Below, in pieces: positions 24,118-45,108 of a stretch of 64,000 nt of DNA. The position numbers and the translations under genes were made by a program. The stretch comes from Clostridia bacterium (lineage in GTDB: Bacteria > Bacillota > Clostridia > TANB77 > CAG-508), in the NCBI GenBank assembly GCA_900754285.1, contig CAAECB010000034.1:3458-67457 (forward strand), in the 5' to 3' direction. How positions within the stretch are numbered: position 1 is the stretch's first letter; each line of letters starts with the position of its first letter. Below the pieces are notes generated by a model. It searched no databases. It was not told where the DNA came from and saw only the letters and a program-made list of their open reading frames with translations.

Positions 24118-25252
24118 ATGAAACTTAATATATTAAAAAATGAATACATATCTTCAATAAAGCCACTTGAACCAAATAAATTTCACTCTTCCATTACTGT
24201 ATCATCTGCTTTAAGAGCAAATTTTTCTGCTGGCTGGAATGACACCCCACCATATTGTAACGAAAACTCAGGTTATACACTAAATATACCAATCTTATAT
24301 AAAAACTCTTTTCCAATAAATGTAAAAATAGAAAAAATAAACGCACCTAAAATCATACTATCTAATAGTTATTCAGAAATTGAAATAACAAATATGTTAG
24401 AATTAATTAATTGCCAATCTCCAAACATTCCTTTTGCACTTCACAAATCTGCAATTTTAGCATCAGGACTTATACCTTTTAATCTTAACTTTAATTTACA
24501 ACATTTTTTCAAAAAAAATTCTGGATTTAAATTAAGTACCAATGTAATTAATATTCCCGTTGGTTCTCGGTCTTGGTACTAGTAGTATTTTACTATATTC
24601 TTGCCTAAAAGCAATTTTTATGTTTTGCGGTCAAAGCTATACTGATTTAGATTTATATCATATGACTACTTGTGCAGAACAAATTATGAATACTGGTGGA
24701 GGTTATCAAGATGCAATTGGTTCATCTAATAATGGATTTAAATTGATTCATTTTAGTCCTGGAATATTACCAGGAATTTATTGTGAATCTATTCATATAA
24801 AAAGTACTATTCAAAAAGAACTAAAAAATAAAATCATTTTTATCTATACAGGCAAAACTCGTCTAGCAAAAGATTTACTTTCTTCTATTATGGAAAATTA
24901 TGTTAATAATGATATAAATACAATACATACATTAAAAAATATTGGGCAAACCGCTATAGATATGAAAAATAATCTTGTTAATGAAGATTTAAAATCTTTT
25001 GGCTCAAACATGATAAAAAGTTTTGATTTAAACATAAAATTAAATAAAAACTTTACTAATAATACAATAAATAATATTATAAAATTTTCTGCTAATTATT
25101 TAGATGGTTACATGCTATCTGGTGCTGGAAATGGCGGCTTTCTTACTTTTTTATTAAATGACTCAATCTCAAAAGAAGCCTTTTCTAATATTTTTGTTTC
25201 AAAATTTAGTAATTCTGATATAAAAATCTATGATTTTAATATTAAGTTTTAA
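24118..25252 (+). pseudogene. L-fucokinase-type GHMP kinase domain (Fkp/FUK C-terminal half) with a frameshift splitting the P-x-GSGLGSS motif
   Basis: AGWNDTPPYCNENSGYTLNIPI is the fucokinase signature. The motif reads ..IPVGS|LGLGTSSILL.. across the frame change. SGAGNGGFLTF is the GHMP motif III. Confidence 0.55.
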
Positions 25253-25307
25253 TACTTATTAGAAAATAGATGTACTTATTTAAAAAGTACATCTATTGTT
25301 TACAAAA

Positions 25308-26199
25308 TTATATTTTCATTTTTGTTCTTTCTTTTGCTATTTTCAAAAACTCCTCTGTAGTTCCATAATGTATAAATTTTCCATCTTCCAGACTTTCTAT
25401 TTTTAAATTTTTATCATTCAACCTATTCCATATTTCAGTTCTTACCTTTAATAATTCTTTTGATATTTCCACTTCTGCCTTTTGGTACAAATACTTATTA
25501 AAATCAACTTCTAAACATAATGGATTTAATAAATCTGTATACAAGTTTATTATAACATCATTAGAAAATTCTATTTTTTTTAAATCTTTTAAAGTATTTT
25601 TATTAAAGTAAATCATGCCTGTATCTATATTAACTTGATTTTGTTCATTCACAGCTCTTTTTCTTTTTAATACTTCTTCTGTTTCTTTTTGTAACGCTTC
25701 TTTTAGAATTTTTTCTTTATTTGTAACAAATACACCATGTCTTTTTCCTAGTTCTACATCAGCTAAAACTGAAAACGCTGTATTTTCTTTAATCTCATTC
25801 TTATTTGTTTTTTTATACATAGTTGTACAATCTCCAGAAACAATCAATATACCTGGTAACATTCTTTTACCTATTGACATGGTCTCTTCAATTATTTCAT
25901 CAAACACTATTTTATTTCTTCCATTAAAAGTTGGTATACATATCTTTCCTTTTTTGGCATATAAAGGCATTCTCTGACACTTTCCTGCAGAATTTATTAA
26001 TAAAACTTTTTTATTTTCTATTTCTTTTTGTTTTATTATATTTAATAATGCTCCGTCCAGAACCTACTTTTTTCTTTTCTATTACTATTCTGTATTCTGT
26101 GTTTTCTTGTAAGTTTCGTTTATATAATTTATTTTTTAAATAATCTTTTTGAAATTGATCTGCTACTGTTATTATTATATAATCAAATACCTTTGGCAT
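25308..26199 (-). pseudogene. Fucokinase-family N-terminal (nucleotidyltransferase-like) domain, frameshifted, in opposite orientation to the GHMP half
   Basis: DYIIITVADQFQKDYLKNKL and MLPGILIVSGDCTTMY resemble the Fucokinase (PF07959-type) region. It is split between ORFs 26011..26199 and 25308..25970. Confidence 0.45.
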
Positions 26200-28709: not shown

Positions 28710-29819
28710 CTAAATTTTAGTAATATCACTTTCACTCTTATCAGCACTATCTATATATTCTTCCAATTTTTTCAATACTTCTTCTAATCCTGTACCTTTA
28801 TAATAAGTAGATAATGCAAAATTTAATCTTGGTGAAACTGTTATTTTTTCACTATCATCTTTTTTATTTTCATCATCATCATCATCTGGCAAAGATATTT
28901 TCATTTTTTCTAATGATATTTTTAAATCATTTAAGAAATCTGCTACACCACTAATTTCAACACCTGAAAATGCTATAACAAATTTAGGTCCCATATATCT
29001 TACAAAAACATAGTTATTTGCTATATTTTTTTGAACATATGCACTTACTTGTGTTACTACCTCATTTCCTAATTCTCTTGAATATACCTTATTTATTTCT
29101 TCAAGATTTGCAATTCTAAACATACATATTGTAGAAGTTGTATGTTGATCTATTTGTCTCTTACCTTCTCCATATAGATATTCTTCTGAATATAATCCAG
29201 TAAACAAATCTTTTCGTACAATACTTTCTAATGTTTTTTGATGTACTACTGTTTTTAATACAGAAACTATATTGTCTTTTATAACTTCTAAAACTGCTGT
29301 ATCAACATTGTCAAAATCATGCGGAGTTCCACTTTCTATAATCCAATACCCTATATAAACATTATCTATATACAATGGGAAAAATATTGCTGATTTTGCT
29401 CTACCAAATTCCATCTGTTGATATGGTAATCTTTCTCTTTCTTTATTAACTGTTACATATTTTGGAGTTGCAGTTGTTATACTATCTTTAAACATATCTA
29501 CATTTTGTAACATACTTAAAGATTTCCAATGTCTTTTATCTACATTTGAAGCTTTTACTACATATTCTGCCCCATCAAATACAACAATTGTGGAATATTT
29601 TATTTCATATTTTTCTATTAAAATATCATTTATTTTTTTTATTTTATCATCTACACTTGAAGTTTGACCTATTGCATTCATAAAATCTTGTACAACAGAT
29701 AAATTAGTTATTTTTTGATTAATATTACGAAATGTTTGTATCTTTTTATGTATTCTCAAATTGTAAATGATAAGTCCAATTACAACTATTATCAATACTC
29801 CAACTATTCCCATTAACAC
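28710..29819 (-). CDS. Membrane-anchored sensor-like protein with degenerate (catalytically inactive) GGDEF domain
   Basis: N-terminal TM. The C-terminus has RKDLFTGLYSEEYL (the D-LTGL-NRR-like motif) and MGPKF in place of GGDEF. Confidence 0.5.
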   Translation of the reverse strand: MLMGIVGVLIIVVIGLIIYNLRIHKKIQTFRNINQKITNLSVVQDFMNAIGQTSSVDDKIKKINDILIEKYEIKYSTIVVFDGAEYVVKASNVDKRHWKSLSMLQNVDMFKDSITTATPKYVTVNKERERLPYQQMEFGRAKSAIFFPLYIDNVYIGYWIIESGTPHDFDNVDTAVLEVIKDNIVSVLKTVVHQKTLESIVRKDLFTGLYSEEYLYGEGKRQIDQHTTSTICMFRIANLEEINKVYSRELGNEVVTQVSAYVQKNIANNYVFVRYMGPKFVIAFSGVEISGVADFLNDLKISLEKMKISLPDDDDDENKKDDSEKITVSPRLNFALSTYYKGTGLEEVLKKLEEYIDSADKSESDITKI

Positions 29820-29838: not shown

Positions 29839-32169
29839 TTAATATTTTCTCATTTGCTCTAAAGTTGAATTTATACTAGGTGTAAAACCATTACTATTAG
29901 CTGTAGGTGGCCTATATGTTGATTTTCCAGATCTATTTTTATATAACATATTAGCTAATTCTGTTAAAATTTGTACTATATTTTTAGGATATCCTCTCAA
30001 AGAAATCTCACAATCTATTAATCCCTCTAAATATTTAACATACACTTGTTCATCAAAAGGAATAGAAATATATTTTATAAGATTTTTATCAAATAATTCT
30101 ACCATATAAGTCATAGCTGGATCATTATATGAGGACATACCTCCAATAATAACTTTATCACTAATTTTTCTTAACTTTTCAGTTTTATTTAAAACTATTC
30201 TTAATTTTTTCTCATCTAACACATTTCTTGATTTTAAAACATTCAAAAAAGCTGTTAACGGTTGAATTGTCAAAACATCCATTGATTGAACCAAATAAAT
30301 TTCTTGTGCATATGAAAAATATGAAATAGGTGTAGAATAATCACAATCTATTAAAACAACTGAATAATTCTTTATTAAAGTTTGTAATATCTCCCCTGCA
30401 TTTTCTATATTATCATTATCATTTGGTAAAGCTGTGTATACTGTTAAATTTCTATTAGCTTGTATACCTTTTGCAACACCATCAATTAAATTTTGGAAAC
30501 AATTCATTGCAGTATTACGCAATTCTTCTTCATTATTTGTATAAATATAATATGCATTTCTATTTTGAGTCATATCTAAAATAGCAGTTGAAACACCTTG
30601 TGAAGCCAAAACTTGAGCAACATTATTTACTATAAATGATGTACCATTTTTACTTGTACCAATAAAACACGCAATTTTTTTATCAGGTGTCAATAAAGAA
30701 CTAATATCTACTTCTGTATTAACAACATTTTGTAAATTATTATTATACATGTTAGTCCCAATATAATTATTACTAATGTTATTATTTGTATATGTAACAT
30801 CACTATTTATTCCTGGCATAACTAAATCATCTTGTTCTTCGTCTTCTAAGCCTGGCATTGTTAGGTCATCATCTTCTACATTACTATTTAATTCTGTTGT
30901 CCCAGGCATTACTAAATCTTCATTGCTTTCAGCAATATCTTCTTTTTCTATATTTTCTTCTACTCCTGGCATAACAATATTTTCTTTTTCCTCTTCATCT
31001 AGTCCTGGCATAACTAAATCATCTTGACTCTCATCATTAGAAAATTCTAATTGGTTTGAAACTTCTACTTTCTTTTTTGGTCTGCCTCTCTTCTTTTTAG
31101 GTGCATCATCTGTATTTTCTGGTAGAGGATTTTTTCTAGGTCTGCCTCTTCTTTTTGGTGCTGGTTTTACTTCTTCTTTTTCAGGTTCTACATTTTCTAC
31201 TTCTTTTACATCATTTTCTTTTTCTTCAAAATTATTTTCATTTTGTACATATGCATTAATTTCACGTTCTATTTGTTTTATTGGATCTTCTTCCTCTTGT
31301 TTTACTGGCTTTGGTTTTGTTAATTTTTTAGTACTTTGTAAATTTACAGCATTTGGTATAACTACTGGTTTAGATAAAATTGTCTCTCTAGTATTTACTG
31401 TTTTCAATAGCATTTCGCTAGTGCCATCATCAACTTCATTTTTAGGTTTTCTTATTTTATCAGAAACCTTTGTATTAAATGCCATTAATTGTTGATATTT
31501 AGGTGATTTTTCTTCTAATACTGCTTTAACATTTAAAGGTAAAAATTTGCAAATTATTTTTAATTGTACATCATTATATTGTGAAGCAATATTATTAAAA
31601 CTTTCTAAATATTTATCTTCATTTTTTCCTAAACGTTTATAATGTGCTAAAATATTTTGAATTTCAACTTCACTTACATCATTTTCATTTTCTGGTCTAT
31701 AATTAACATCATCTGAATCTATTTTATAATAAATTTTAGCTTCTTTTTTAGAACGTGGCTTATTTATTAATTTGCACAATTCATCTATATTTCTGTCTGT
31801 TCCTAGTAATGCATCATATATGCTAATTCCAAATAATTTTACAAGCATTTGTTCAGATTTTATTCTTCTATCAGAACATATTAAAATAATTGGGATATTA
31901 TCTCCCTGATAGTTTGATGCCTCATCACTAATACTATCTAATTTTTCAAAGATAAATTTATCAATTTGGTCATATTGATTATTAGTAAAGCTCTCTAAGT
32001 CTTCACTAATAACAACTCTATCATATGTTTTATCTTTTTGTAATTCTTTTAAAATTGCATTAAAGTAATAAACATTTTTATATGAAATGATTTCTTTATA
32101 TTCTTTTTGATATTTTTTTACGATATTTTCTGAAATTTCTTCATTACTTACAGCAAATAATACTTTCAT
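29839..32169 (-). CDS. Large multidomain protein: REC-like N-terminus, two AT-hooks (RGRP), five tandem D-L-V-M-P-G repeats, C-terminal ParA/MinD/CpaE-like ATPase domain with degenerate Walker A
   Basis: PKRRGRPRKNP and KKKRGRPKKK are AT-hook motifs. DLVMPG, NIVMPG, DLVMPG, DLTMPG and DLVMPG recur with acidic linkers. The C-terminal ACFIGTSKNGTSF...VVLIDCDYS matches MinD-like topology. Confidence 0.75.
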   Translation of the reverse strand: MKVLFAVSNEEISENIVKKYQKEYKEIISYKNVYYFNAILKELQKDKTYDRVVISEDLESFTNNQYDQIDKFIFEKLDSISDEASNYQGDNIPIILICSDRRIKSEQMLVKLFGISIYDALLGTDRNIDELCKLINKPRSKKEAKIYYKIDSDDVNYRPENENDVSEVEIQNILAHYKRLGKNEDKYLESFNNIASQYNDVQLKIICKFLPLNVKAVLEEKSPKYQQLMAFNTKVSDKIRKPKNEVDDGTSEMLLKTVNTRETILSKPVVIPNAVNLQSTKKLTKPKPVKQEEEDPIKQIEREINAYVQNENNFEEKENDVKEVENVEPEKEEVKPAPKRRGRPRKNPLPENTDDAPKKKRGRPKKKVEVSNQLEFSNDESQDDLVMPGLDEEEKENIVMPGVEENIEKEDIAESNEDLVMPGTTELNSNVEDDDLTMPGLEDEEQDDLVMPGINSDVTYTNNNISNNYIGTNMYNNNLQNVVNTEVDISSLLTPDKKIACFIGTSKNGTSFIVNNVAQVLASQGVSTAILDMTQNRNAYYIYTNNEEELRNTAMNCFQNLIDGVAKGIQANRNLTVYTALPNDNDNIENAGEILQTLIKNYSVVLIDCDYSTPISYFSYAQEIYLVQSMDVLTIQPLTAFLNVLKSRNVLDEKKLRIVLNKTEKLRKISDKVIIGGMSSYNDPAMTYMVELFDKNLIKYISIPFDEQVYVKYLEGLIDCEISLRGYPKNIVQILTELANMLYKNRSGKSTYRPPTANSNGFTPSINSTLEQMRKY
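30770..31035. repeat. Intragenic tandem repeats encoding the (D/N)(L/I)(V/T)MPG motifs of the 776-aa protein
   Basis: Repeated cctggcat(t/a)ac... units. They produce the repetitive antisense shadow ORF 30776..31027. Confidence 0.7.
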
Positions 32170-32172
32170 TTG

Positions 32173-32616
32173 TTACCCCCTCCCAAATTTTATAAACACT
32201 GCAAATGCAAGTGGCAAAATTTGGCATATAATTAATAAAATAGTAAATGTAACCATTAGTCCCATACCTTTTTCCAATGTATCTAACTTACGGATACCTA
32301 TAACATATTTATGTATTGCACCAATAGCAAGTCCTAAAAAGCAAAATGGTATACTATATATTTGAACCAAATGCAAAATATATGCAACTGTCCCATATAC
32401 CTTAGAGCCGTACTTTTCTTGGTAATCTGCTAAATTTTTAGTTTCTGTTTCTTTTATTTCTACTATTTTGCTTTCTGTTTCGTTATCTATAACATTTTGC
32501 TGAGTTGCTTTTACTGTTACAGTATTAGTCCAAAACATAAAAACAAATAACATAGTAAGTATAATACTTGCTACTTTTTTCATTTTAATCCCATTCCTTT
32601 CTCTATAAAGGTACAA
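32173..32616 (-). CDS. Hypothetical membrane protein (147 aa)
   Basis: N-terminal signal/TM plus two C-terminal TM segments. Its stop abuts the upstream gene. Confidence 0.4.
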   Translation of the reverse strand: MYLYRERNGIKMKKVASIILTMLFVFMFWTNTVTVKATQQNVIDNETESKIVEIKETETKNLADYQEKYGSKVYGTVAYILHLVQIYSIPFCFLGLAIGAIHKYVIGIRKLDTLEKGMGLMVTFTILLIICQILPLAFAVFIKFGRG

Positions 32617-32740: not shown

Positions 32741-33751
32741 TTACAATTTTCCGTATAAATATTGCATATGTTTATAAACTGCATTAGCCCAATTTTTATC
32801 ACTAGCATATTTTTGATTAACACCAGACAACGTCGGACTAGAATAATAAGTTCCAACGGCTTTTTCATTACCATAAATGCTTGTACCCCTAGGGTTCAAA
32901 TAATATTTAACCAAAACCCTCGAAATCAAATCTATACTTTCTGAATAATTAGAAAATTTATATGCACCATTATATGGATTAGAATCATATGCACCATATC
33001 CAAAAAGATTTTTCTTATCTTTAGCAATCTTTGATGTTCCCCAATTGCTTTCATGTATACCTATGGCAGCAACAAAAATACCATTAATATTATATTGTTT
33101 TTCTACATAATAAAAATAATCTGCATTTTGTTCAAAAATCTTATTAACATCTTTACTATCTTTTAAAATCTTTTGGAATTGTTCCAAAGAAAGTCCACTT
33201 GGCTTATTTAACTGCATATCAAATGTAGAACTTTGAGTTGATTGAACTACTTTTGGTCTTTCTTTTGTTCCAACTTTTATAACTTTATTTAAAGCAGGTT
33301 TAACAACTGCAACTGAAATTTGTTCTTCTTTCTTAAATTCTCCATTTTCAAATATTTTTTTATATGTAATTCTTTGAGTTCCCTTTTTTCCATCTTCAAC
33401 AACAGCTGTTTCTCCTTTAAATAAATCATCTGATTGCACATATTCTGTCAAATATTCCAAAGTAACATCTTCATGTCTTAATTCTTCAGAAGTACTCTGA
33501 TTTGAATTTTGACTAATAACTGTATCAATATCTATTTTACTAGCTTCTGAATATTGCACTTCTTCATCTTCTTTGGTATTTTCATTTAAATTACTACTAA
33601 CAGCATAAGAAATATTTCCTTTTATATATAAGTTATAAAAAATAACTATATCGAATACAATAATAGTAAAAAGACATGCAAAAATAATATTTTTTAAATT
33701 CAACTTTAATTTAGTACTTTTTTTTACTTTTTCTTTAGATTTCATTAACAC
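32741..33751 (-). CDS. Membrane-anchored GH73 N-acetylglucosaminidase (mannosyl-glycoprotein endo-beta-N-acetylglucosaminidase domain)
   Basis: C-terminal FVAAIGIHESNWGTSKIA...LFGYGAYD matches the glucosaminidase active-site region. Confidence 0.7.
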   Translation of the reverse strand: MLMKSKEKVKKSTKLKLNLKNIIFACLFTIIVFDIVIFYNLYIKGNISYAVSSNLNENTKEDEEVQYSEASKIDIDTVISQNSNQSTSEELRHEDVTLEYLTEYVQSDDLFKGETAVVEDGKKGTQRITYKKIFENGEFKKEEQISVAVVKPALNKVIKVGTKERPKVVQSTQSSTFDMQLNKPSGLSLEQFQKILKDSKDVNKIFEQNADYFYYVEKQYNINGIFVAAIGIHESNWGTSKIAKDKKNLFGYGAYDSNPYNGAYKFSNYSESIDLISRVLVKYYLNPRGTSIYGNEKAVGTYYSSPTLSGVNQKYASDKNWANAVYKHMQYLYGKL

Positions 33752-33942: not shown

Positions 33943-34785
33943 ATGAAAAGTTTTATATTAAAATATAAAAAGCTTTTAATACCTCTTATAATTTCAAGTA
34001 TTTTTGCTATAGTGTTATTAATTATAGTTATTTTTAACTACATACCAAACTTTATTGAGAAAAACAAATTTGAAAATCAAGTTTTAAAATTTGCAAACAA
34101 AAATGACAAAACAACATTTTCAATTAATGAAATAACACTATTTAGCAGTTGTGATGTAAAAAACAAACTAAGTGGAAAATCAAACTTTACAATTGAAAAT
34201 CTATTTGCATATACTGATATTGCGATTTTTATAAATAAAAATTCTTCAGAAAGTACTTTAGAAAACACACTAAAAGATGTGACTTTAAAAAATTTTTCTA
34301 TAGACCAAGCACCTCAAGACGGACAAGCAAAATTATATTATAAAAGTCTTAATCAGTTTGCAAAATCACTATTACCTAATCAATTAGAAAACTCTTCAGA
34401 AAATCTACAAAACATTGAAAACGAATTAGATTTTGAAACAATTTCTAAAGAAACGTCTGATTTTTCTAATCCAATTTTATATAATAATTGTGCAAATCCA
34501 ATTACACTTAGTTACCTTATAGAAAACATAAAAACAGATTACACAATATTGGACACATCAACACCTATAACTTATAATGGTTCACTATTAAAAAGATGTG
34601 CTGTGCCAATAAGCAATATCGAGTCAAAAATATCATTTGAAATTTATATCACAAATTATAAAGATGAAAAATTTAAAAGCAAAGTATTTATTACAATTCC
34701 ATTCAAAAATGATACAAATTCAATATATGATGGAAACATAACAATTAAACAAAATACAAATTTTGTTTTTTATAAATACGAATAA
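33943..34785 (+). CDS. Hypothetical N-terminally anchored protein (280 aa)
   Basis: N-terminal TM. The rest is Asn/Ile/Lys-rich with no recognisable domain. Confidence 0.4.
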   Translation: MKSFILKYKKLLIPLIISSIFAIVLLIIVIFNYIPNFIEKNKFENQVLKFANKNDKTTFSINEITLFSSCDVKNKLSGKSNFTIENLFAYTDIAIFINKNSSESTLENTLKDVTLKNFSIDQAPQDGQAKLYYKSLNQFAKSLLPNQLENSSENLQNIENELDFETISKETSDFSNPILYNNCANPITLSYLIENIKTDYTILDTSTPITYNGSLLKRCAVPISNIESKISFEIYITNYKDEKFKSKVFITIPFKNDTNSIYDGNITIKQNTNFVFYKYE

Positions 34786-42804: not shown

Positions 42805-43905
42805 TCAGAATTCATTTATTTCATATTTTCCTGTTTTTTCATTTAATTCTAAAACAACCTTAGATGACAAGCAAACAACTGGTCTAAATGCTACAGTTTT
42901 ACCATCATAATAATGATGACGAACTCTACCATAATAATATACAGCCATAATATTTTCGTTATGTACTGCAGATGGTGATGAAACCCAATAAGCATATGCT
43001 TTTTGATGTTGTGGATCATCTGCTACATATAATCTATTTGTATCTGTTGCAAAACTATCTGTCCATTTTTGCCAAGTTGTACCTCCATCTACACTTAATA
43101 AATATCCTGCATATCCACTTCCAGTTGCACCTTCACTATTCACATCAGTATTTTCTCCAGTTACAGTATATTTTAACTTATCTTTTACCTTTGGATGTGT
43201 TTGAATATAACTTTCATACAACATTTCTAAAGTTGGACCCCCTATTGCATAATTAGCATATCCTTTATTATCTTTATATATTTTCCATGCCTCTATATCT
43301 TGCATATATGCCACAACCTTATTATTACTATATTTCTTTTTTGCATTTGGTACTATTCCGTCAGGAAACATCTCAAAATACTTCTTATTCATGTTTTTCA
43401 AACTTTTTTCATAAATATTATTTGATAATATTCTATCCATTCCACTATATGAATTTACTACTTGCACAAAATTTGCTTTATATTCTGCACCATATGGACA
43501 TTGTGAATCTTCTCCTATAACTTTATTAGGCAATTTATCTGTAACACTTATAGTTCCATCTTCATTTTTTTCTATTGCATATGGTAATGCTGTATTTTTT
43601 ACATAACTATTTGCTATTAAATATATATTTTCATCATCAGCATAAAATATTTGCCATTTCACATCTTTATCAGCTTGAATTTCCTTGTTTTTTGCATCTT
43701 TTACAACATAGTTAGATACTTCTTTTCCATAAGTTATTATAGCATTTTCTTTTATTTGTTTCGCATTACCTTTTTTATTATCTTCCTCTTTTTCTCCTAT
43801 TATATGATCTAATTCATTTTTCCACATTTCTAAAATATTATTTTCAATTTCTATATATTTACTCTTTGCTTCTTTTGCTTTTTTCAAAATTCCATTATCA
43901 GACAT
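42805..43905 (-). CDS. Hypothetical secreted/surface protein (366 aa). A candidate N-terminal signal/TM segment is encoded in another frame just upstream (43906..44010).
   Basis: The ORF has no hydrophobic N-terminus. The upstream overlapping frame reads MRKKLKKENAITIPALIITIILLLILARS..., which suggests a frameshift at the 5' end. Confidence 0.4.
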   Translation of the reverse strand: MSDNGILKKAKEAKSKYIEIENNILEMWKNELDHIIGEKEEDNKKGNAKQIKENAIITYGKEVSNYVVKDAKNKEIQADKDVKWQIFYADDENIYLIANSYVKNTALPYAIEKNEDGTISVTDKLPNKVIGEDSQCPYGAEYKANFVQVVNSYSGMDRILSNNIYEKSLKNMNKKYFEMFPDGIVPNAKKKYSNNKVVAYMQDIEAWKIYKDNKGYANYAIGGPTLEMLYESYIQTHPKVKDKLKYTVTGENTDVNSEGATGSGYAGYLLSVDGGTTWQKWTDSFATDTNRLYVADDPQHQKAYAYWVSSPSAVHNENIMAVYYYGRVRHHYYDGKTVAFRPVVCLSSKVVLELNEKTGKYEINEF

Positions 43906-44298: not shown

Positions 44299-45108
44299 CT
44301 ATACTATAATATCTGTATCCAATGAAATAGGTTGTTCTTGTTCATTTTCACTAGAATATTCTTGTTTTTTCAAAAATTCAACAGAATTCTGTCTCTGCTT
44401 TTCTAAACTTGGAACACCGACATGCAAAGATTCTATAAAATCTTTTTCGCCGTTATTTTCGTTCTCTTCTTTAGTAATTGTACTCTGTTGAAATGCATCA
44501 TATTTTTCTAAAACTTTATCCAACAAGTTTTTATCAGATTGTTCCAAGCACTCAAATATCTCCTGTTCTTCCTTAGAAGATTGAATTTTAGCAATTAATT
44601 GTTTAATCTCAATTATTTGAGAATAAATAGTCTCATCTGAATAACCTCTCTGTTCCAACATATTTGATGCTCTACTAGAAACATCTCTAATATAATCAGA
44701 AAAATTTCCTATTATTTTATCTGTTATTGTAACATTTTTTCCAGTCACAATTTGATGAAATTCATCAATATCTTTTTGTTTATTATCTGATATTCCTTCT
44801 TCAATACTTTGTTCCATTTTTCTACATTTATGAATTATTTCACTAGCAATGTCATCTTTTTTATCATCTTGTAATTTTCCCAACATATTTTCAACATAAG
44901 TAAAGTTCAAATCTATATACTCAAAAACATTTTCAGGATTAGAATTATATCTAGCAACTATATCTTTAAGAACATTACAATAACTCTGTAATTTTTGTTT
45001 TATCTCCTCTGGCATTTCTGAAAATTCTATTAAACTTAATATATCTTTTTTCATATCTTCTAATAAATTAATTTTATTCATATAATCTTTCTTCCTTTCA
45101 AAAAACAT
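44299..45108 (-). CDS. Hypothetical acidic protein (269 aa)
   Basis: ORF only. There is a 3-nt gap to the downstream ORF. Confidence 0.35.
   Translation of the reverse strand: MFFERKKDYMNKINLLEDMKKDILSLIEFSEMPEEIKQKLQSYCNVLKDIVARYNSNPENVFEYIDLNFTYVENMLGKLQDDKKDDIASEIIHKCRKMEQSIEEGISDNKQKDIDEFHQIVTGKNVTITDKIIGNFSDYIRDVSSRASNMLEQRGYSDETIYSQIIEIKQLIAKIQSSKEEQEIFECLEQSDKNLLDKVLEKYDAFQQSTITKEENENNGEKDFIESLHVGVPSLEKQRQNSVEFLKKQEYSSENEQEQPISLDTDIIV

Follow-up and report, generated by a model that had tools for sequence, protein, structure and literature searches.

In bacteria, chromosomes, division sites, and large machines are positioned chiefly, as far as is known, by ParA/MinD-type proteins. All members studied, to our knowledge, need a nucleotide cycle as well as a deviant Walker A motif. 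The hallmark form of that motif is KGGxxK[S/T], and some members carry their key lysines elsewhere in the sequence (PMC11407121). TadZ has a Walker-A-like consensus, K/RGGXGXS/T, that is without the classical Walker lysine, and its receiver domain has been proposed to be an interaction module (bioRxiv 10.64898/2026.07.08.737194). In the BcsQ/BcsE/BcsF module, a MinD-like protein is bound by a degenerate GGDEF domain and is brought to the membrane via a small membrane protein (PMC7439463). AT-hooks with a contiguous acidic region, for their part, are hallmarks of HMGA and of the C-terminal domain of CarD; a paper of 2010 named CarD and its ortholog as the sole prokaryotic examples (PMC2919716). 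The subject of this report is a gene for a protein of 776 amino acids (aa) that touches on all of these systems. It lies on contig CAAECB010000034.1 of a Clostridia bacterium, within a stretch of 64,000 nucleotides that was analyzed as a whole (the window). The GC content of the window is 24-32%, and that of the genome is given as 27%.

29839..32169, minus strand: complete coding sequence, 776 aa, ATG start; pseudo-receiver and helical bundle, disordered linker, ParA/MinD-like pseudo-ATPase, C-terminal helix

The modeled architecture is of the TadZ/CpaE type, a pseudo-receiver and helical bundle being followed by a ParA/MinD-fold domain, and the protein belongs to a family without annotation that is confined to AT-rich, uncultured Clostridia of the gut. 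It may be a catalytically dead, chromosomal, TadZ-like organizer with an HMGA-like module that links nucleoid, membrane, and envelope partners, a reading to which a probability of about 0.4 is assigned. A first-pass annotation, made from the letters of the sequence, had described a 776-aa open reading frame (ORF) with two RGRP hooks, five (D/N)(L/I)(V/T)MPG motifs, and a GTSKNGTS P-loop, all of which are present. It had also foreseen that the protein might turn out to belong to a well-characterized family, with the hooks and repeats as unconserved insertions. No such membership emerged, and hooks and motifs are conserved in at least 75 species.

When the full protein was scanned against Pfam and NCBIfam, no model scored above cut-off; the sub-threshold matches were CbiA (E value 0.039, 14 bits) and Peptidase_S49. 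A search of the PDB with the single 776-aa sequence gave nothing meaningful, one with a profile of the N-terminal domain came back empty, and a phage collection gave no match to the protein. TadZ was not matched at the sequence level by the Pfam, NCBIfam, or PDB sequence and profile searches. Of 8000 candidates scored, 6670 pass E ≤ 1e-3, all of them unnamed or "hypothetical", and the nearest named homologue is that of Clostridium sp. 27_14. HMMER, run exhaustively over 1.84 billion cluster representatives, found 568 clusters (50% identity) and did not reach canonical MinD/ParA proteins by sequence; the family is narrow. At least 567 genomes carry a member in a scan of one genome per GTDB species, and the gene is single-copy and syntenic in at least several hundred species of Clostridia that are abundant, though uncultured, in human and animal guts. 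The 80 loci listed come from the gut of human, rabbit, chicken, or mouse, and their titles read uncultured Clostridia, Clostridium, Eubacteriales, Ruminococcaceae, or Bacillota. Family representatives have the N- and C-terminal domains in common, and the length of the linker between them is very variable. A literature search for ParA/MinD proteins with AT-hooks turned up nothing relevant. The TadZ-like receiver domain of a paper on the type VII secretion system was considered and set aside, as it belongs to an unrelated AAA+ protein, TsfV.

Whether the protein could be an active ATPase depends on its C-terminal domain, in which three features matter.

29929..30684, minus strand: ParA/MinD-fold domain, aa 496-747 (AlphaFold2, Foldseek, profile match to CapB)
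30637..30660, minus strand: P-loop variant GTSKNGTS, aa 504-511 (hhalign against E. coli MinD, CapB alignment)
30568..30576, minus strand: D532-M-T534, of which D532 corresponds to MinD D38 (kept) and T534 to MinD D40 (catalytic Asp replaced)

AlphaFold2 modeled aa 488-776 with a pLDDT (predicted local distance difference test) of 89 and a pTM (predicted template modeling score) of 0.85. Foldseek gave 237 matches in the PDB at E ≤ 1e-3, the best quoted being ParA 8ray (1e-8), with further matches to the Chlorobium ParA-family ATPase 3ea0, MinD, Soj, FleN/FlhG, BcsQ, ParF, and NifH. The matches to ParA, MinD, Soj, FleN, and BcsQ (E 1e-8 to 1e-6, TM-score 0.6-0.73 on the target) place the model within the ParA/MinD fold. 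The AlphaFold2 models and Foldseek bear out the first-pass annotation at both ends of the protein, giving a receiver-like fold at the N-terminus and a ParA/MinD fold of MinD/CpaE type at the C-terminus. The family profile also weakly matches the bacterial tyrosine kinase CapB (E 2e-3), with "nGTS" opposite "aGKS".

The register of the P-loop comes from hhalign against E. coli MinD, in which domain residue 28 falls on MinD residue 21; the alignment spans 20 residues and was used for register alone, and the MinD query was checked against 3q9l (E 1e-164). In this register, T505 corresponds to MinD K11 (the signature lysine), T510 to K16 (the Walker lysine), and S511 to T17. KGGxxK[S/T] is lacking, and TSKNGTS does not fit the TadZ motif either; the two have in common only that the classical lysine is gone and that the last position is S/T. 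Since both lysines and the equivalent of D40 have been lost, ATP hydrolysis by the domain is unlikely, as had been surmised earlier from the P-loop. The earlier description of the Walker A as degenerate is right insofar as the motif is off consensus, but the label misleads. GT[SGT]KNGT[ST]F is found in 75 of 76 species orthologues, and the wider form, G-[TSA]-x-K-[NSA]-G-[TV]-[ST]-F, hardly varies in the family, which argues that the variant has been selected and has not decayed.

None of 34 diverse members departs from G504, G509, S511, D532, T534, D608, or D610, and 32 of them have K507. One might therefore suppose a working ParA/MinD-type nucleotide switch, with K507, S511, D532, and D608/D610 binding ATP or another nucleotide and the protein dimerizing, cycling on the nucleoid or membrane, and positioning cargo dynamically instead of being a static scaffold. 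The pocket is evidently under selection, key lysines have been relocated in some members of the group (PMC11407121), and TadZ likewise does without the classical Walker lysine. However, the positions of MinD K11 and K16 are both Thr, and that of the water-activating D40 is an invariant Thr. Moreover, scans of the window found neither minC/minE nor parB/parS beside the gene and no MinE- or ParB-type partner nearby, and the plasmid homologues described below retain GKS, so GTS is a derived loss. Such a switch is somewhat unlikely.

The N-terminal part shows a comparable loss of catalytic residues.

31720..32169, minus strand: pseudo-receiver (REC/CheY-like) domain, aa 1-150 (AlphaFold2, Foldseek, column conservation)
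31465..31677, minus strand: five-helix bundle after the receiver-like domain, aa 165-235, with helices at aa 167-233 (AlphaFold2 secondary structure)

The AlphaFold2 model of aa 1-235, made with 33 family sequences, has a pLDDT of 88 and consists of a five-stranded alpha/beta domain up to about aa 150, followed by the bundle, which is shared with the plasmid homologue. This region is the most conserved part of the protein, 92% identical to orthologues that are 74% identical overall. Foldseek matched the model to receiver domains in the PDB, with the REC domain of ComE at E 8e-4 and the lowest root-mean-square deviations (rmsd) given by CpaE 4n0p, TadZ 4lda, and the pilus-assembly-related 4dad (3.3-4.1 Å over about 137 columns). 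Alignment of the profile with a single CheY sequence gave nothing, and receiver positions were mapped from the modeled fold and from where its strands end. Mapped in this way, the site of the acidic pair after beta1 is occupied by S8-N9-E10, and the phospho-acceptor site by E56, which is invariant (VVIS-E, compared with FVIS-D of CheY); C98/S99 come after beta4, Y118 is invariant, and beta5 has no Lys following it. All three hallmarks of a receiver are then missing: the phospho-acceptor Asp, the acidic pair, and the Lys after beta5. By the model, the domain is a pseudo-receiver, atypical and without a phospho-acceptor as in TadZ/CpaE, and the first-pass annotation had seen it much the same way. 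Across the family, the receiver Asp is replaced by Glu56, the Walker Lys by Thr510, and the equivalent of MinD D40 by Thr534, in each case almost invariantly.

Between the two globular parts lies the linker, the most unusual portion of the protein.

31126..31158, minus strand: AT-hook 1, PKRRGRPRKNP, aa 338-348, RGRP at aa 341 (motif search)
31069..31098, minus strand: AT-hook 2, KKKRGRPKKK, aa 358-367, RGRP at aa 361 (motif search)
30790..31059, minus strand: acidic block, aa 371-460, net charge -28, with five Phi-[LIM]-P-G-Phi motifs
31354..31377, minus strand: third linker motif, LSKPVVIP, aa 265-272, consensus L-x-[KR]-P-[VI]-[VI]-I-P

When the whole window is translated in all six frames (about 128,000 residues), RGRP turns up twice, both times in this gene. 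The hooks follow a family consensus, P-[PV]-K-[RK]-[GK]-R-G-R-P-[RK]-K, and in 45 of 49 family representatives the distance between them is 17-28 aa. The block that contains them (aa 331-370) has a net charge of +10. Two hooks with an RGRP core flanked by K/R and P, next to a contiguous acidic region, make up what is called here an HMGA-like module, eukaryotic in style. The third motif persists in members of the family whose identity is as low as about 52%.

Within the acidic block, (D/N)(L/I)(V/T)MPG recurs at aa 384, 397, 418, 435, and 448. The count of five given in the first-pass annotation stands, and the spacing, described there as even, is only roughly so (13, 21, 17, and 13 residues). 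In 100,000 composition-preserving shuffles of the linker, Phi-[LIM]-P-G-Phi never appeared more than twice, compared to the five times observed, so neither the motif count nor the pair of hooks is due to chance. Family linkers hold 121 copies, where composition predicts 0.8, a 150-fold enrichment. The repeat consensus in the family is [DE]3-x-Phi-L-P-G-[FLM]-[DE]3, and in this light the MPG form of the present species, which the first-pass annotation had taken for the motif itself, is a local variant of a family-wide Phi-L-P-G-Phi-[DE] motif. Motif peptides are SQDDLVMPGLDEEE (an example 12-15-mer) and, as the family consensus, EDDxILPGFDDEE. A few members carry (I/V)(N/D)LF(D/A)L or LLDLDDD in place of the motif. 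The LPG motif is reminiscent of three others, the beta-clamp motif (QLxLF), the C-terminal peptide of FtsZ (D-I-P-x-F), and the tip of SSB (DDDIPF), and these resemblances are offered as leads only.

Recent duplication was considered as the origin of the repeats and rejected, as synonymous sites and spacers vary from copy to copy; Tandem Repeats Finder reports for the region one weak 39-bp repeat (77% matches, 2.3 copies). The acidic block is just 26% identical to that of close orthologues, yet the motifs are kept, with turnover in copy number. Because they persist through this divergence, at synonymous sites as well, the repeats bear the marks of a selected array of short linear motifs, the role suspected from the start. 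On the opposite strand, an ORF of 83 aa (30776..31027, plus) consists of repeated "PGITKSS" units. It is the mirror of the acidic repeat region and almost certainly an artefact and no gene.

How far the module extends is indicated by 76 intact orthologues from different species genomes. Exactly two hooks are found in 75, and Phi-L-P-G-Phi is found at least once in all 76 and at least twice in 75, with a range of 1-8 copies. The combination is thus universal in the nearest clade, and it is missing in deep branches: among 74 full-length representatives of 50% clusters, at least two RGRP are found in 49 and at least one Phi-L-P-G-Phi in 31. The linkers of distant members are instead ER-rich and coiled-coil-like, built of KEVPVE repeats, or rich in S/G/Y. 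The idea that genomes with hooks are more AT-rich than those without was rejected, as all have 24-31% GC.

Perhaps, then, hooks and MPG repeats are neutral low-complexity insertions, and the linker merely tethers two domains. Linker length does vary across the family, from about 70 to 870 aa, the linkers of deep branches are quite different in kind (ER-rich or S/G/Y-rich), and the acidic block has changed greatly between close species, to 26% identity. But neutral sequence would hardly retain exactly two hooks in 75 of 76 species, with an extended consensus and a conserved spacing, or a motif 150-fold above composition through copy-number turnover and synonymous divergence. The proposal is largely refuted and highly improbable. 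Or perhaps the protein is akin to a DNA-binding response regulator, with hooks that remodel promoters in the manner of CarD/HMGA and acidic repeats that serve as an activation or interaction region. A REC-like domain accompanied by canonical hooks and an acidic region does match the hallmarks of HMGA and the CarD C-terminal domain (PMC2919716), and the N-domain model weakly matches RcsB-type regulators over its whole length. Those matches, however, have an rmsd of about 13 Å, the receiver cannot be phosphorylated, and AT-hooks would confer little sequence specificity in a genome of 27% GC. Besides, what is most conserved is the pseudo-receiver, the ParA-like domain, and the tail, and distant members have no hooks at all. 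This function is improbable.

The protein ends, after a disordered stretch, in a short helix.

29842..29880, minus strand: amphipathic C-terminal helix, aa 764-776, PSINSTLEQMRKY (AlphaFold2 helix at aa 764-775)

It is 100% identical in orthologues of 74% overall identity, and most members share the pattern F-x3-[MI]-[ND]-x-[TS]-L-x2-M-[KR]-x2-Y. Its hydrophobic moment is 0.53, compared with 0.38 on the same scale for the membrane-targeting sequence of E. coli MinD, and the C-termini of distant members, KKGLF or FKRKFKLFGK, resemble MinD tails. The tail is a candidate membrane-targeting or partner-binding peptide, and membrane targeting by it is plausible.

If the protein works at the membrane, its neighbors may be pertinent.

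32741..33751, minus strand: membrane-anchored G5+GH73 glucosaminidase, first gene of the apparent operon (Pfam G5 and Glucosaminidase)
32173..32583, minus strand: small membrane protein, 136 aa, with a signal-peptide-like N-terminus and two transmembrane helices
28710..29819, minus strand: membrane protein with a degenerate GGDEF domain (Pfam GGDEF, 3e-7)

The order of transcription on the minus strand is glucosaminidase, small membrane protein, 776-aa gene, GGDEF membrane protein, ireB, ruvX, and DUF1292. The first-pass annotation had the small membrane protein and the glucosaminidase follow the gene; given its strand, they are upstream, and the GGDEF membrane protein, ireB, and ruvX are downstream. 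The best promoter-like site of the region, an 11/12 match at 33863-33835, is 5' of the glucosaminidase, and no terminator-like sites were seen within 27-35 kb.

The small-membrane-protein gene, as called mechanically (32173-32616, minus), begins at a TTG; its homologues are 135-136 aa in length. The true start is probably the ATG at 32583 (MKKVAS...). The two transmembrane helices come with a short basic loop. The protein has no Pfam match, and its relatives are all unnamed, the nearest with any title being "unknown [Clostridium sp. CAG:470]". Its gene ends ...GGG AGG GGG TAA, 3 nt ahead of the ATG of the 776-aa gene, and the Shine-Dalgarno sequence of the latter (GGGAGGGGG) is inside these last codons; the two genes are translationally coupled. 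Downstream, the GGDEF membrane protein reads RYMGPKF (28980-29000) where GG[DE]EF would be. No RxxD I-site was seen near RYMGPKF, nor was another motif for binding cyclic di-GMP seen. Its conservation between species, 69-88%, is above that of the ParA-like domain.

In 80 species genomes, all of them fairly close relatives, the neighbors are conserved: the small membrane protein in 77, the GGDEF membrane protein in 79, ireB in 78, ruvX in 76, DUF1292 in 71, and the G5-GH73 glucosaminidase in 68. Around two distant members the order is a PBP5-type carboxypeptidase, a small protein homologous to the small membrane protein, the homologue itself, ireB, ruvX, and DUF1292; such a small protein is upstream of the distant member P0237. 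The flanking wall enzymes (GH73 or PBP5) together with ireB hint at the cell envelope, but the gene order may simply be inherited.

Several other ORFs of the window may be mentioned. A divergent ORF of 280 aa with an N-terminal transmembrane segment (33943-34785, plus) has no Pfam or NCBIfam match and adjoins the operon in 54 of the 80 genomes. Farther off are two overlapping ORFs (24118-24582 and 24560-25252, plus), then a 220-aa fragment (25308-25970, minus) that matches positions 33-261 of the 418-position Fucose_pyrophosphorylase profile, and, just 5' of that fragment on the same strand, an ORF of 62 aa (26011-26199). Their sequences suggest frameshifted or split genes of fucokinase/pyrophosphorylase type within 24118-26199, possibly a disrupted region. 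Between adhE and ligA, two ORFs of 366 and 269 aa (42805-43905 and 44299-45108, both minus) have no Pfam match at E ≤ 1e-3.

The family's only homologues found outside its lineage are encoded on plasmids. A tblastn search of PLSDB led to proteins annotated as hypothetical, encoded by C. botulinum plasmids 134-143 kb in size and by a 169-kb plasmid of C. beijerinckii. The proteins (WP_017826339 and WP_264647532, 543-546 aa) are homologous over their full length, with E 3e-19 for the N-terminal domain and 5e-7 for the C-terminal domain. They too have Glu at the phospho-acceptor site, and their P-loop, SGKS or TGKS, keeps the Walker lysine; Pfam CbiA is above threshold. Their linker is short, of the KEVPVE type, and without hooks or LPG motifs. 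The clusters are located on C. botulinum plasmid NZ_KT897275 (10-52 kb) and on C. beijerinckii NZ_CP107023, megaplasmids typed "non-mobilizable".

Neighboring genes on the plasmids encode an amidase of 1927 aa, a SAF/CpaB-like protein, a protein of 277 aa, an ATPase annotated as T2SS/T4P/T4SS family, a 669-aa protein, and cell-wall hydrolases. Farther along, the cluster encodes a DUF87 ATPase, a C39 peptidase, signal peptidase I, and a GGDEF protein of 349 aa whose GGEEF is intact. Two assignments are weak: the SAF/CpaB-like protein to TIGR03177 (E 1.5e-3) and the ATPase to the TadA family (TIGR03819, E 8e-3). The 277-aa protein has a P-loop-like motif, "HGRGNTS", and a KKKFIFFNI tail. To judge by its gene content, the cluster looks like an undescribed pilus, secretion, or conjugation apparatus. 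The first-pass annotation had preferred a role in division, chromosome organization, or sporulation, which may yet apply, to one in secretion; setting secretion aside is not supported, as the only homologues outside the lineage lie in such a cluster.

The GGDEF membrane protein of the window is homologous over its full length to the GGEEF protein of the plasmids (23% identity over 351 aa, E 1e-18). Of 30 plasmid-cluster proteins, then, two have homologues in the window, this one and the 776-aa protein, and there they are adjacent. Because it is only those two, side by side, the chromosomal pair looks like a catalytically degenerate derivative of a pair from an envelope-spanning apparatus resembling a pilus or secretion machine.

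One might go further and take the protein to be a bona fide localization factor of TadZ/CpaE type for a pilus or secretion machine encoded elsewhere in the genome. It shares the two-domain architecture, TadZ/CpaE receivers are among its best fold matches, and a CpaB-like SAF protein and a T2SS/T4P/T4SS-family ATPase are encoded in the cluster headed by its only homologues beyond the lineage. Yet those two plasmid assignments are the weak ones given above, and the window has no tad/cpa, pilus, or secretion genes, just the two homologues of plasmid-cluster genes; in the 80 genomes, as in the window, the adjacent genes are housekeeping and cell-wall genes. The Walker-like motif also departs from that of TadZ, which has no counterpart of the hooks and acidic repeats. 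A TadZ/CpaE factor in this strict sense is quite unlikely.

The dead organizer proposed at the outset would work as follows. The 776-aa protein would be a non-hydrolyzing scaffold whose AT-hooks bind the AT-rich nucleoid non-specifically, while the C-terminal helix, the two membrane partners, or both keep the ParA-like domain at the membrane. Protein-protein contacts would be the task of the pseudo-receiver, as proposed for TadZ receivers. The multivalent acidic motifs would recruit a partner or else fold back on the basic hooks to regulate or mask them. The outcome would be a nucleoid-membrane hub that positions or regulates an envelope process, for example the activity of wall hydrolases or PBPs, or division.

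Some points weigh against this proposal. The deepest branches of the family have neither AT-hooks nor LPG motifs, so binding the nucleoid cannot be the ancestral core function. The GGDEF membrane protein is absent beside the distant members. The synteny with ireB, ruvX, and DUF1292 may be inherited gene order, not functional linkage. K507 and the invariant G504, G509, S511, D532, D608, and D610 may mean that nucleotide binding has been retained. And a tail conserved at 100% is more constrained than a simple membrane anchor requires; it also fits a partner-binding peptide.

A more specific version of the organizer is a nucleoid-membrane tether, a pseudo-ATPase that has exchanged ATP-dependent DNA binding for AT-hooks, with the acidic Phi-L-P-G-Phi array recruiting a core factor of division, replication, or wall synthesis, for instance by mimicry of FtsZ or SSB tails. 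It is rather unlikely. If true, a major group of uncultured gut Clostridia would possess a system of their own that coordinates chromosome position with the septum or with wall remodeling, and an organizer of a plasmid secretion system would have been domesticated, along with its GGDEF partner, into a dead chromosomal module. Should the broader notion of a nucleoid-membrane hub hold, it would provide a route to spatial organization that is independent of nucleotides and a second prokaryotic architecture of AT-hooks and acidic region after CarD, far more widespread. The LPG motif would then be a defined peptide bait for partners in organisms not yet cultured. The degeneration of the ParA-like and GGDEF proteins as a pair, relative to intact plasmid homologues, looks like a clear instance of the co-domestication of pseudo-enzymes.

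It remains to place the protein among the known systems. It cannot be counted a member of either ParA/MinD or TadZ, since it lacks the Walker motif that defines each and, in the case of TadZ, also the context of the locus. Its fold and architecture suggest that it would function as an organizer of TadZ type. With TadZ/CpaE it has in common an atypical, non-phosphorylatable receiver followed by a ParA/MinD-fold domain without the classical Walker lysine, and remote homologues in a cluster resembling a pilus or secretion system. It differs in its 260-aa disordered linker with hooks and acidic motifs (TadZ has a short connector), in the additional helical bundle after the receiver and the conserved C-terminal helix, and in having no tad genes nearby. 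With MinD/FlhG/FleN it has in common the fold (Foldseek E about 1e-7, TM-score up to 0.72 on the target) and, with MinD/FlhG, an amphipathic C-terminal helix after a flexible segment, a candidate counterpart of their membrane-targeting sequence. Unlike MinD, it lacks the deviant Walker A KGGxxK[ST], D40 is replaced, MinC and MinE are not encoded adjacently, and the N-terminal domains and linker have no MinD counterpart.

The enterobacterial BcsQ-BcsE-BcsF module of cellulose secretion offers the same assortment of parts: a MinD-like protein, a degenerate receiver, a degenerate GGDEF domain, and a small membrane protein. In the present case, however, the pseudo-receiver is fused to the MinD-like domain, the degenerate GGDEF is on a separate membrane protein, and there is no cellulose synthase. 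The resemblance is best regarded as analogy, not demonstrated homology. Myxococcus CarD and eukaryotic HMGA, lastly, are similar in having several canonical hooks (of the P-K-R-G-RGRP-R-K type) together with a contiguous stretch of highly acidic character. But they have three or four hooks compared to two here, and here the acidic region follows the hooks on their C-terminal side and holds a hydrophobic motif in structured repeats. The module is set between two globular domains of a ParA-type protein, with no RNA-polymerase-binding domain attached to it. What is unusual is this very combination, a ParA/MinD-fold pseudo-ATPase joined to an HMGA-like module and a multivalent motif array.

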